Shown: positions 13,448-17,236, counted from the first letter of the stretch. The stretch: DNA of 62,952 nucleotides from Candidatus Omnitrophota bacterium (GCA_028692655.1 JAQUWY010000007.1:1-62952), one strand, 5' to 3'. Numbers and translations are program-made. The notes: generated by a model from the letters alone, not told the origin.

Positions 13448-13762
13448 TCAGGCCTTAAAAGCTATATCTTTTATAATTATCCAGAGCAGAACGACTATGA
13501 TAACCGTAGATACAATGTAGAAATCATGAAAATATATGAACTCTCGCAGCTTTTCTAAATTACGGTGCTGTTTTTCAGGAATATTGTATTTCTTCTTTAT
13601 CGCCGGGCGGATTTTTAGAACATCTTCCCTCCTGAAACGCAGGAATTCTCCGGCAACTTTAAAATGAGGGATAATGTTGTTGTTTGCCAAAGCGATTATT
13701 TCTTTTTCGGGGATTCCCAGGATATGCGAAGCTTCCCGGGTAGCTAAAAGTTTTTCTTTCAT
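13448..13762 (-). CDS. Excisionase-like HTH protein with C-terminal TM helix
   Basis: LLATREASHILG..IPHFKVAGEFLRF; hydrophobic YIVSTVIIVVLLWIII. Confidence 0.75.
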   Translation of the reverse strand: MKEKLLATREASHILGIPEKEIIALANNNIIPHFKVAGEFLRFRREDVLKIRPAIKKKYNIPEKQHRNLEKLREFIYFHDFYIVSTVIIVVLLWIIIKDIAFKA

Positions 13763-13915
13763 TTTTACTTCTAATACTTTTATTTCTATTACTTAATTCT
13801 TTTAAGAAAATATATTTTACAGTATTTTTATATCAAGGCAATGTTTATTTTAAGCCGCAAGCTGACTTAAAAGGCACAACAATACTCGGCGGAATAAGTT
13901 CAAGCGGTATTCTTA

Positions 13916-14410
13916 TCAAGTTCTGGTAGCTATCCACTCTTCTACTTGTTTACGGTCAAACAAGAGCTTATTGCCTTCTTTTTCAACCGGAATCTTGCCT
14001 CCGTCAACCCATTCCATGATCTTTCCCTCCTCGATTGACAGGTAATCGGAAAGCTCTGAAAGAGATATTTGAGATTCAAGCATCCGGCTCTTACCGTTAA
14101 ATACGGCACCTTCTTCAATGGAGAGCTTGGGAGCCTGGATGTCTCCAACAACTTGAGCGGTAGAAACAAGTCTTAAAATTTCGCTGGCCCTGATATTACC
14201 TTTTACGTTTCCGGCAACAGTAACTGCCTCTCCAATAATATCAGCCTTAACCTCAGCGCTGGAACCTATAATCAGATTGCCTTTGGTAGTAAGATTTCCT
14301 TCAAACTTACCGTTAATCCTCAAATTTACAGGGTCGGAAAAAACCAGGCTTCCCTGCATGGCGGCATCAACATCAAGGACTTTCTCATCCATCCTTCTTT
14401 TGGCCATCAT
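13916..14410 (-). CDS. Bactofilin fused to C-terminal excisionase-like HTH
   Basis: LRINGKFEGNL..VAGNVKGNI..LSIEEGAVFNG; LSELSDYLSI..WVDGGKIP..LLFDR. Confidence 0.85.
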   Translation of the reverse strand: MMAKRRMDEKVLDVDAAMQGSLVFSDPVNLRINGKFEGNLTTKGNLIIGSSAEVKADIIGEAVTVAGNVKGNIRASEILRLVSTAQVVGDIQAPKLSIEEGAVFNGKSRMLESQISLSELSDYLSIEEGKIMEWVDGGKIPVEKEGNKLLFDRKQVEEWIATRT

Positions 14411-14461: not shown

Positions 14462-14887
14462 TTAAAGAATATTTTTCTCTACTTTTTTTAAAACGGAAAG
14501 GGAAAGATAAGAAAGCAAGGTTACGATAATCGCTCCACTTATATACCCGCAGCCTATTGCCAGGCCTATGCCCGAGCTCACCCAAACACTTGCGGCTGTT
14601 GTCAAGCCTTTGACACCCTCCCTGCTCCTAATAATTGTTCCGGCTCCTAAAAATCCTATGCCAGTTACTACACCTGCAGCGATACGCGCAGGGTCAATAG
14701 AGCCTTGGCCCTGGTAAACGCCGTGCACATAAAGAGAGGTCAACATTATAAGAGCCGAGCCCATACACACTAATATATGAGTCCTGAAACCTGCCCCGCC
14801 GCCTTTTTTTTCGCGTTCCAGGCCTATGATGCCTCCCAAAATAAAAGCAATAATTAATCGTAAAGTAGTAGAAAGTATATTAGGCAT
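14462..14887 (-). CDS. MgtC/SapB family membrane protein
   Basis: GLERE, AGFRTH, DPARIAAGVVTGIGFLGAG. Confidence 0.92.
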   Translation of the reverse strand: MPNILSTTLRLIIAFILGGIIGLEREKKGGGAGFRTHILVCMGSALIMLTSLYVHGVYQGQGSIDPARIAAGVVTGIGFLGAGTIIRSREGVKGLTTAASVWVSSGIGLAIGCGYISGAIIVTLLSYLSLSVLKKVEKNIL

Positions 14888-15877
14888 TTAGCTGCCTCCT
14901 GCTTCTAAATTTAAACGGCTTCTGACCCCTAATGTATTATACAGGTAAAAACCCAATCCCGCAACTGCCGCGGCATTGTCCCCGGAATATTCTTTGGGAG
15001 AAATCAAGAAAGAAAGCCCTTCATCCTCTTTCTTTTTAAGCATTTTTCGTAAATAAGTGTTGGCGGCCACCCCTCCTCCTATCACCACCTTAGAAATTTT
15101 ATACTTATCGGCCGCCTCTATGATAGTCTTAGTAATGGCCTGTGCCACTGTGTGCTGGAAAGAAGAGATCAAACCGATTTTTGCTTTGTGATTAAAAGCG
15201 TTTTCCTTTTCTAAATCTCTTTTTTTATAAATTAAAGCTGTTTTGATGCCGCTAAAGCTCAAATCAAAGCCTGACTTTCCACACTTAAAGTTGAAATCTT
15301 CTCGGCAGGCATGCTGATAAAGCCTATCGATGACAGGGCCTCCCGGGTATCCTAAGCCATAATGCACGGCTATTTTATCATAAACTTCTCCGCAGGCATC
15401 ATCTTTAGTCCTGCCGATAAGCCTGGGCTTGCTAAAATCTTCAACCAGATATAAATCTGTATGCCCGCCTGAAATAACTACTCCCAGAAAAGGAAAAGTT
15501 ACAGTATTTTTGTTATTCAAAAAAGGAGCGAAAAGATGGGCATGCAGATGATCCACTCCCAGAAAAGGTTTTCTTAAAGCCAAAGACAAGGCCTTAGCGA
15601 AATTCAACCCTACCACCAAAGCTCCTATTAAGCCCGGACGATAAGTAGCAGTAATAAGATTTATTTTTTTAAGAGAGACCCCTGATTTTTTCTCTGCAGT
15701 TGAAACGATCTTATCGATATTTTTTAAATGGGCCCGGGTGGCTATCTCAGGGATAACCCCTCCATATTTCTTATGCTCGCGCAGCGATGAAAGAGTTATA
15801 TTAGCAAGGACACGATAATCTTTAAGGATAGCACAAGAGGTTTCATCACAAGAAGTTTCTATTCCAAGAGTATACAT
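14888..15877 (-). CDS. tsaD: tRNA N6-adenosine threonylcarbamoyltransferase
   Basis: GIETSCDET, HLHAH, SGGHT, GGGVAAN, DNAA. Confidence 0.96.
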   Translation of the reverse strand: MYTLGIETSCDETSCAILKDYRVLANITLSSLREHKKYGGVIPEIATRAHLKNIDKIVSTAEKKSGVSLKKINLITATYRPGLIGALVVGLNFAKALSLALRKPFLGVDHLHAHLFAPFLNNKNTVTFPFLGVVISGGHTDLYLVEDFSKPRLIGRTKDDACGEVYDKIAVHYGLGYPGGPVIDRLYQHACREDFNFKCGKSGFDLSFSGIKTALIYKKRDLEKENAFNHKAKIGLISSFQHTVAQAITKTIIEAADKYKISKVVIGGGVAANTYLRKMLKKKEDEGLSFLISPKEYSGDNAAAVAGLGFYLYNTLGVRSRLNLEAGGS

Positions 15878-16015
15878 ATAGATTCAAATTAATAACCTAT
15901 TTCTGTGTATTTCAACATAGTTCTATTATATTCCTACAGGCATTGAGATACGGTAAATATGCTTTGTAAAATAAAGCAGGAATACATTATTTAATATTTA
16001 AATTTTAGAATCACG

Positions 16016-17236
16016 CTACTTGGCTGCTTTTAACACCTGGATACCTTTAATCAAATCCAACGCTCTTACTATCTGATAATCTTTTTTATAATCAAATTCT
16101 TCTTTTTTTGCCTCCAACTCTTTAAAAACATCCTCTTTCTCTTCGTCTGAGACCTCTTTGGTGACCTCTATATCAGGGTCTATGCCTTTCTCGTGTATAC
16201 TTTTTCCGGCAGGAGTGTAATATTTAGAAGTCGTTACTCTTAGAGCTGAACCGTCAGATAAAGGTATTATTGTTTGGACCGACCCCTTGCCAAAAGTTTT
16301 TTCCCCAAGGAGGATAGCCCGGTCGTTTTCCCTCAAGGCCGCGGCAAGAATTTCACTTCCCGAAGCACTTCCTTTGTTTATAAGCACCACTATCGGAATC
16401 TGGGTATGTTTATTATTTTTGCTATCTGCGCTGTATATCTTTTCGTCTTCACTTCGGGATTTGGTTGAAACAATCACTTTCCCGGAAGGAAGAAAGATGC
16501 TGGAAACATCCACTGCGGAGCTTAAAAGCCCTCCGGGATTATTTCTAACATCGACGATTAAAGCTTTCATGCCCGCTTTATTAAGCCTAGTTAAAGCTTT
16601 GGATAAATCCTTAGCTGTGGTTTCCCTGAATTCCGATATCCTCAGATAAGCTATATCATCTTTTAGAATAACGGCTCGCTTGATATCTTCTATTTTGATT
16701 ATACCCCGGGTGATTTTTATATCTTCAATTTTTCGGGGTTTTTCTCTCAAGACTGTTATAGTGACATCTGTGCCGGGCTTGCCGCGCATTTTCTTAACTG
16801 CTTCATTAAGGGTTATTCCTCTAGTCAGCTCGCCCTCAATTTTCACTATAATGTCTCCGGCTTTAACCCCGGCCTTCCAAGCCGGAGTATCTTCTATGGG
16901 AGAAACTACGGTAAGGAGTCCATCTCTCATCGTAATCTCTATGCCTAAACCTCCGAATTTCCCCTCTGTTTCAACAAGAAGATTGGCATAATCCTCAGGG
17001 GTTAGAAACTGGCTGTAAGAATCAAGGGAAGCCATCAAACCTTCCATGGCCCCATAAATTAAATCCTGAGCTTTTTTGTCCTCTACATACTTTTCTTCTA
17101 CAACCGCTAAGCTTTCGGAAAATATTTCGAGTTCTTTGTATAGATCATCTTTTTGTTTTGCAAATGACATACCTGCTTGATAAGAAATGGCCGCTATCCC
17201 TAAAATTACGGCGAAACCAAAAAATCTTTTTCGCAT
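16016..17236 (-). CDS. Carboxy-terminal processing protease (S41 family)
   Basis: PDZ, DVRNNPGG, SASGSE, KTFGKGSVQ. Confidence 0.95.
   Translation of the reverse strand: MRKRFFGFAVILGIAAISYQAGMSFAKQKDDLYKELEIFSESLAVVEEKYVEDKKAQDLIYGAMEGLMASLDSYSQFLTPEDYANLLVETEGKFGGLGIEITMRDGLLTVVSPIEDTPAWKAGVKAGDIIVKIEGELTRGITLNEAVKKMRGKPGTDVTITVLREKPRKIEDIKITRGIIKIEDIKRAVILKDDIAYLRISEFRETTAKDLSKALTRLNKAGMKALIVDVRNNPGGLLSSAVDVSSIFLPSGKVIVSTKSRSEDEKIYSADSKNNKHTQIPIVVLINKGSASGSEILAAALRENDRAILLGEKTFGKGSVQTIIPLSDGSALRVTTSKYYTPAGKSIHEKGIDPDIEVTKEVSDEEKEDVFKELEAKKEEFDYKKDYQIVRALDLIKGIQVLKAAK

Follow-up and report, generated by a model that had tools for sequence, protein, structure and literature searches.

A 62,952-nt stretch of DNA from a Candidatus Omnitrophota bacterium (GCA_028692655.1 JAQUWY010000007.1:1-62952; hereafter the window) encodes two neighboring proteins, A and B, that each carry a winged helix of the excisionase type. 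In A the winged helix is fused to a bactofilin, and in B it is joined to a transmembrane helix. Wherever a locus has a recognizable A and enough downstream DNA, B comes next on the same strand (278 of 278 loci), and the pair represents a genuine and strongly conserved variant of the bactofilin system. Our tentative reading is that A and B form a membrane scaffold, in which charge-complementary winged helices would couple a bactofilin polymer to a tail-anchored partner.

Bactofilins are widespread, and their membrane attachment and client recruitment are known in a few model species only. Omnitrophota are ultra-small uncultured bacteria of the Planctomycetes-Verrucomicrobia-Chlamydiae (PVC) group, with MreB and no FtsZ in the sample described below. 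Their sole bactofilin is hard-wired to a folded adaptor domain and comes with a dedicated integral-membrane partner, and its targeting phenylalanine was apparently lost. Should the two winged helices bind each other, the pair would represent a new mode of bactofilin anchoring and a clear re-use of a DNA-binding fold as a protein-protein connector. A full-text literature search returned no paper linking bactofilins with Omnitrophota or Omnitrophica, and the main Omnitrophota genomics paper makes no mention of bactofilin, FtsZ, MreB, or the cytoskeleton.

Conservation of the gene pair

The window corresponds to contig C12 of an Omnitrophota genome (G000, the source genome) of 1.65 Mb and 91% completeness. 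Conservation was scored in 151 genomes spread evenly over the phylum, 125 of them ≥90% complete. Full-length A is present in 132 of the 151 genomes and B in 143; at ≥90% completeness the counts are 113 and 121 of 125. Wherever both genes were listed (129 of 129 genomes), B lies immediately 3′ of A on the same strand. Three genomes that at first appeared to have A only gained B by profile search. A total of 297 loci was gathered: those of the phylum genomes, 80 from GTDB species, and 80 from metagenomes, the last group seeded from another class. Nineteen of these were not counted among the 278: 14 are contigs that end at A or within ~400 nt, and five are A-less loci that were taken deliberately. 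The recurrence of the A-B layout in 278 independent loci argues against chance.

The genes around the pair change between classes. The order S41 peptidase-TsaD-MgtC-A-B is kept in the class of the window and not in other classes, where the order is A-B-GreA-AcpS-YdjC. MgtC is the upstream neighbor of A in 97 of 169 scorable loci, and the spacer between A and the upstream same-strand gene is short, with a median of 47 nt. A phylum-wide operon reaching beyond the pair was considered and rejected, as flanking genes are kept only within classes. Since the flanks differ in this way, the unit under selection is the A-B pair.

The best 80 GTDB loci are all from Omnitrophota or from evidently mislabeled bins. 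Many public metagenome-assembled genomes with the pair are labeled "uncultured Planctomycetia" and one is labeled "Methanosarcinales archaeon". Genomes that carry the pair under the labels of other taxa are probably mislabeled or contaminated bins.

Domain architecture and predicted structures

Protein A matches two Pfam families above their cut-offs, Bactofilin (PF04519) at residues 11–108 (E 7e-26; 90.8 bits vs 27.9) and HTH_17 (PF12728) at residues 116–163 (E 1.1e-8; 35.7 bits vs 27). Protein B matches HTH_17 at residues 6–50 (E 5e-7; 30.3 bits vs 27). The NCBIfam model TIGR01764 ("excisionase family", cut-off 28.8 bits) is exceeded by A with 33 bits, and B falls below it with 22.2 bits. 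Against the MADS1 antiphage helix-turn-helix (HTH) model NF047737, A and B score 32.9 and 25.3 bits, far from the equivalog threshold of 80, and these scores reflect generic HTH similarity only. Neither protein has a Pfam match to DUF4004 (PF13171) at E ≤0.1. The two HTH domains are homologous at the family level (hhalign probability 98.3%, E 1.9e-14). They are not each other's closest relatives: a free-standing HTH_17 protein encoded in the same genome stands closer to the A domain. A preliminary description of this DNA had reported that the neighboring genes share an excisionase-like HTH, attached to a bactofilin core in one and to a transmembrane helix in the other. This holds at the coordinates that it gave: Pfam places HTH_17 in both proteins, and the Pfam domains and structural models agree on what each HTH is attached to.

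A is the only bactofilin match in a search of the whole source genome. A second bactofilin, which lacks the winged helix, is rare; one occurs in genome G107 (C43:7185-7496) as a 157-aa frame with 50% identity over residues 7–110. The start of gene A is probably the second methionine codon (14407), as relatives are 163 aa long and begin MA(K/R).

The AlphaFold2 (AF2) model of A shows a β-helix followed by a β-α-α-β-β-α winged helix, with a mean predicted local distance difference test (pLDDT) score of 86.9 and a predicted template modeling score of 0.65. The elements of this C-terminal head are a strand at 114–116, helices at 117–124 and 128–136, strands at 143–145 and 148–152, and a helix at 153–163. 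The linker between core and head has 4 residues in the clade of the window and 7–19 elsewhere. Sequence searches of the Protein Data Bank (PDB) match the core to BacA (2n3d; E 4e-9) and to the Thermus bactofilin TtBac (6ria), and Foldseek superposes it on 2n3d with a template modeling (TM) score of 0.82 and a root mean square deviation (rmsd) of 2.1 Å. Residue F104 of A falls at the place of TtBac F105, which is mutated in the deposited 6ria "F105R" entry, and diverse relatives have a hydrophobic residue (F, I, L, or V) there; the end surface of the polymer thus looks intact. From its family membership and this retained hydrophobic end residue, A should polymerize without nucleotide.

The AF2 model of B (mean pLDDT 81.2) consists of a winged helix, a short low-confidence linker, and a single helix at residues 65–103. 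The head has helices at 8–15 and 19–27, strands at 34–36 and 40–43, and a helix at 45–59. The linker from head to anchor spans 15–20 residues and is basic, with no long coiled coil. The hydrophobic part of the C-terminal helix covers about residues 76–97, and about 7 residues lie beyond it. B is predicted to be tail-anchored with its head in the cytoplasm (N-in, C-out), and the basic stretch N-terminal of the helix fits this orientation. The most conserved part of B is an aromatic juxtamembrane motif with the family consensus DFWYFNDFY, in which F75 is conserved in 96%, F78 in 94%, N79 in 87%, F81 in 91%, and Y82 in 99% of 256 members. In families f3 and f5, a variant form of B has an acidic insert of ~33 residues between winged helix and anchor, with a consensus of about EVE..P......LD..GKPTHH..DLE.EIK.

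Charge and DNA-contact residues of the winged helices

PDB sequence searches with the single proteins returned bactofilin cores only, and profile searches gave weak matches to BldC, RacA, and Xis (E 1e-4 to 0.2). By structure search, the best fold matches of both heads are BldC, Pukovnik Xis, RdfS, and the RacA DNA-binding domain. Both heads superpose on BldC and the excisionases with TM scores of 0.72–0.84 and an rmsd of 1.1–1.7 Å, and the B head superposes on BldC with TM scores of 0.80–0.84. The B head also matches RacA (5i44; TM 0.69, rmsd 1.9 Å) and pSK1 Par (8csh; TM 0.67). Protein-binding members of the same fold (CbpM, DafA, and Rpp) are among the fold matches.

BldC contacts DNA through K26, T27, T29, R30, K33, H46, R47, and R48, and R30A and H46E abolish binding (PMC5859096). 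These positions were mapped onto 256 non-redundant family members, to which the following frequencies refer. The A head lacks this basic set of contacts. Its net charge is −4 in the window protein, and 92% of members are likewise net negative. At the BldC Arg30 position (E133), 92% have Glu or Asp; at the Arg47 position, 73% have Trp; and at the Arg50 position, 60% have Asp or Glu. Almost all conserved charges of the A head are acidic, with acidic residues at positions 119, 125, 127, 133, 145, and 157. The free-standing HTH_17 protein of the same genome served as an internal control; it is 34% identical to the A head and has a net charge of +9. Because the A head has lost its DNA-reading residues and is acidic, its sequence points to protein docking rather than DNA binding, and canonical DNA binding by this head is very unlikely.

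The free-standing HTH_17 protein has 61 aa and is encoded on contig C31 (locus L002 375-560). Its gene lies just upstream of, and overlaps, a 511-aa open reading frame (ORF) with one predicted membrane helix, the product of which looks PilM/PilN-like by eye. A free-standing basic HTH_17 gene of this kind may be the type of gene from which the fused A head derives.

The B head keeps the wing only. K or R occupies position 35 in 93%, R position 42 in 100%, R or K position 44 in 95%, K or R position 45 in 87%, and K or R position 52 in 95% of members. Through this wing the B head might bind DNA, though it is no typical sequence reader.

The main rival to the scaffold is a DNA-membrane tether centered on B. 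The pair would then be a split nucleoid-membrane tether of the RacA/RocS/RicO kind: the B wing would bind DNA, mostly non-specifically, the transmembrane helix would fix that DNA to the membrane, and the bactofilin polymer would give oligomerization and multivalency. In structure, the nearest matches of the B head are BldC and the DNA-binding domain of RacA, and its positions equivalent to BldC Arg41, Arg48, and Arg50 are K or R in 93%, 100%, and 95%. The recognition helix, however, is not DNA-like; 72% of members have Glu or Asp at the Thr27 position, and residues vary at the Arg30 position (K 23%, D 21%, E 18%, R 11%). The net charge of the B head averages only +0.75 and is negative in 29% of members. 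RocS and RicO combine a MerR-type winged helix with a membrane anchor and must oligomerize to act, which a coiled coil allows, and B outlives A in some lineages, as a self-sufficient tether would. The head of A, on the other hand, is acidic, and ParB is encoded elsewhere in the genome with nothing that ties the pair to it. We consider such a tether unlikely, while keeping it ahead of the other alternatives.

These results bear on the function suggested in the preliminary description, which had seen in the pair either a filament-DNA-membrane tether or an HTH interaction module, by analogy with bactofilin scaffolds that position ParABS, and had named conservation of the pair as a check. The pair is emphatically conserved, in 129 of 129 genomes and 278 of 278 loci, and an interaction module of HTH domains is still the best reading. 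The filament-DNA tether has lost ground, given an A head that is negative in 92% of members with Glu or Asp at the DNA-reading arginine and a B recognition helix that, unlike the B wing, is not basic. Nothing ties A-B to ParABS, and the ParB gene is on another contig (C3).

Proposed membrane scaffold and its alternatives

We propose a two-protein membrane scaffold module that appears specific to Omnitrophota. The β-helix of A would polymerize without nucleotide, so that each subunit of the polymer bears a C-terminal winged helix of the excisionase/MerR type. This head, acidic and without DNA-reading residues, would serve as a protein-docking head and not as a DNA binder. B would sit in the membrane by its C-terminal helix and show its basic-winged head to the cytoplasm. 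Binding of the acidic A head to the basic-winged B head would fasten the polymer to the membrane and array B along it. B would be the older or more independent part, as it is kept where A was lost, and its wing and aromatic juxtamembrane motif could also bring it into contact with DNA or a further partner. Contact between the A and B heads is preferred here because of their complementary conserved charges and the absolute linkage of the genes. Any role of the module in cell shape, division, or nucleoid placement is likewise conjectural.

The N-terminal tail of A also speaks for anchoring through B. Bactofilins have a membrane-targeting consensus, MFSKKKK, of which BacA needs Phe2 and Lys4/Lys7 to bind the membrane (PMC12448750); the sequence is typical of bactofilins and not universal. 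The A tail is of the MAKKK type, with lysines but no Phe2, and is basic and disordered. Position 2 is Ala in 123 of 246 family members and Phe in 5, and Phe is at position 3 in 19 of 246.

Co-evolution between the proteins was assessed by mean-field direct coupling analysis (DCA) of 256 non-redundant A-B pairs (effective number of sequences, Meff, 166), with six within-clade permutations as a control. The scores are noisy. Among the top 25 inter-protein pairs, 10 are head-by-head, compared with 4 expected from area and 3–7 in the permutations, which is a trend only. The analysis also returned many implausible long-range pairs. The net charges of the A and B heads correlate with a Spearman rho of −0.13 (p 0.04), which is too weak to use.

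Several observations weigh against the scaffold. The top inter-protein DCA score, 1.89, is at the noise level set by the permutations (1.33–1.86). The start codons of the A relatives were picked heuristically, which affects the N-terminal residue counts given above, and the basic MAKKK tail might bind anionic lipids without a phenylalanine. Net charge is only a rough guide to DNA binding, and avidity could let an A polymer bind DNA by a non-canonical face. At least seven of the sampled genomes show a clean deletion of A, with B under purifying selection; with A lost and B kept, the invariant Arg42 of B cannot serve A binding alone. One near-complete genome (G111, 98%) has neither A nor B, and the module is therefore not strictly essential.

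The A-less, B-bearing genomes belong to five genera of family f11 (G047, G063, G087, G093, and G109) and to genus g8 of family f3 (G015 and G033). They are 95–100% complete and have no bactofilin anywhere in the genome. At these loci B stands directly after tsaD or mgtC, in the position expected for A, and its head and juxtamembrane motif are the same as in A-bearing sister genomes. Retention of B where A was lost indicates that B has a function without need of A and is more than a tether for the filament. The f11 versions of B at A-less loci bear an N-terminal extension of 25–50 aa. Loss of A together with loss of MreB was considered and rejected, as MreB is found in 148 of the 151 genomes, including all A-less ones.

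In a further alternative, A and B do not touch. Adjacency would then come from shared winged-helix ancestry and shared expression; the A head would recruit some other basic client, and B would act independently, for example as a partner of the neighboring MgtC-family protein or of a different membrane complex. The unchanged head and juxtamembrane motif of B where A is missing fit this explanation, as do a co-evolution signal not clearly above permutation, conservation of B that peaks in the juxtamembrane motif and not in the head, and a promoter-like site between the two genes in the window. Adjacency in 278 of 278 loci across classes in which all other neighbors have changed is nevertheless hard to explain without a functional tie, and the conserved charges of the two heads are complementary. 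Independence of the two proteins seems improbable to us, somewhat more so than the tether. A regulatory switch, in which one winged helix is a transcription factor sequestered at the bactofilin or the membrane like Bacillus BacR, which is encoded with BacE/BacF, held at the membrane, and does not bind DNA while bound (PMC13649987), is very improbable here, since B is permanently membrane-inserted with no obvious release site, the A head is acidic and covalently attached to the polymer, the median 47-nt spacer 5′ of A leaves little room for an operator, and neither protein matches DUF4004.

Genome context

Coordinates of the two genes, their parts, and the gene 5′ of A are listed in Table 1. 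In the window, genes for an S41 (Ctp) peptidase, TsaD, and an MgtC-family protein lead into A-B (14462-17236, minus strand). The gap between the A and B ORFs has a median of 44 nt in relatives and is unusually long here, at 153 nt. Given the promoter-like site in this long spacer, B may also be transcribed on its own in the source genome.

Table 1. Positions of genes A and B, their parts, and the upstream gene, counted from the first nucleotide of the window
Feature	Coordinates	Strand	Basis
Gene A, bactofilin-winged-helix fusion protein, 164 aa	13916..14410	minus	ORF; Pfam Bactofilin and HTH_17
A, short basic N-terminal tail (MMAKRRMDEK)	14381..14410	minus	Disordered in model, pLDDT <50 at residues 1–8
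A, bactofilin β-helix core, residues 11–108	14087..14380	minus	Pfam, PDB matches, Foldseek
A, C-terminal acidified HTH_17 winged helix, residues 116–163	13922..14065	minus	Pfam, AF2, charge
A-B spacer, 153 nt	13763..13915	minus	Holds promoter-like site
Promoter-like site, TTGATA-16-TATATT	13836-13809	minus	Consensus scan, 10/12 matches
Gene B, tail-anchored (predicted) winged-helix membrane protein, 104 aa	13448..13762	minus	ORF; Pfam HTH_17
B, N-terminal HTH_17 winged helix, residues 6–50, with basic wing K35, R42, R44, R45	13613..13747	minus	Pfam, AF2
B, aromatic juxtamembrane motif E74-F-I-Y-F-H-D-F-Y82 into transmembrane helix (~76–97)	13472..13543	minus	Conservation, AF2
MgtC-family membrane protein gene, 5′ of A	14462..14887	minus	Pfam MgtC, E 8e-41

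The source genome encodes MreB, ParB (contig C3), and an HTH_25 protein of RodZ-like size, and the A-B pair is not beside par genes. No FtsZ was found in it with Pfam FtsZ_C, with tblastn using Escherichia coli FtsZ, or with the tubulin signature motif GGGTG[ST]G. The Tubulin/FtsZ domain (PF00091) is present in 0 of 101 phylum-wide Omnitrophota genomes and in 13 of 14 control genomes. In published PVC surveys, Omnitrophota are counted as FtsZ-positive or left undecided (PMC5147048, PMC12283558). With MreB but no FtsZ in the sample, a universally kept cytoskeletal module becomes a candidate for division or chromosome handling. The absence of FtsZ raises the interest of A-B and assigns no function by itself. 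A bolder possibility, which we hold to be doubtful, is that the A polymer and its tail-anchored partner form a nucleotide-independent apparatus that places the nucleoid or the division site at the membrane, alongside MreB and in place of FtsZ-centered machinery. The two proteins would then by themselves make up a link between cytoskeleton and membrane, and perhaps DNA.

Comparison with known systems

RodZ, as reportedly described by van den Ent and colleagues in 2010, is a bitopic protein that binds the MreB polymer with its cytoplasmic HTH and so holds it at the membrane. The HTH of RodZ is an Xre-type HTH_25, its periplasmic domain is RodZ_C, and its partner is actin-like, whereas B has HTH_17 only and ends ~7 residues past its transmembrane helix. 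B as a substitute for RodZ was considered and rejected, as a separate HTH_25 protein of RodZ-like size (253-aa frame, contig C22) is present.

BldC and the excisionases Xis and RdfS, the best fold matches for both heads, are stand-alone winged helices that assemble head-to-tail on DNA (PMC5859096). The positions of the BldC dimer-interface residues Phe21, Val23, and Trp31 are hydrophobic in A (L124, V126, and W134). BldC is basic and reads DNA through Lys26, Arg30, His46, Arg47, and Arg48; A has lost these residues, and B keeps the wing arginines only. Unlike A and B, BldC has no polymer or membrane attachment.

RacA, RocS, RicO, and pSK1 Par resemble B in having a small N-terminal winged helix of the MerR/excisionase type and membrane attachment (PMC11500499; bioRxiv 10.64898/2026.03.06.710092), and RocS and RicO are its nearest architectural analogues. 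For self-association these proteins use a coiled coil, and they reach the membrane by an amphipathic helix or through DivIVA, whereas B has a transmembrane helix and no long coiled coil. RicO R18 and the RacA equivalent of BldC R30 are recognition-helix arginines needed for DNA binding; at this position A has Glu or Asp, and the residue varies in B.

The BacNOP-PadC-ParA/ParB system of Myxococcus xanthus ties a bactofilin scaffold to chromosome-handling proteins through PadC and ParB (PMC5703909). In contrast to it, A-B has no ParB-like or ParA-like domain, and ParB is encoded on another contig. The nearest published HTH-bactofilin precedent is BacR (YhbD, DUF4004) of Bacillus subtilis, a soluble DNA-binding protein that regulates its own operon and binds BacE/BacF at the membrane (PMC13649987). 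BacR-BacE/F and A-B are alike in that genes for an HTH protein and a bactofilin stand together. They differ in that here one HTH_17 is fused to the bactofilin and the other is membrane-inserted, and neither has a DNA-like recognition helix.

The canonical bactofilins BacA (2n3d) and TtBac (6ria/6rib) share with A the same core, a hydrophobic residue at the F105 position, and short disordered charged tails. Unlike them, A lacks Phe2 in 98% of family members, carries a folded C-terminal winged helix, and is accompanied by a dedicated downstream partner that is predicted to be tail-anchored.

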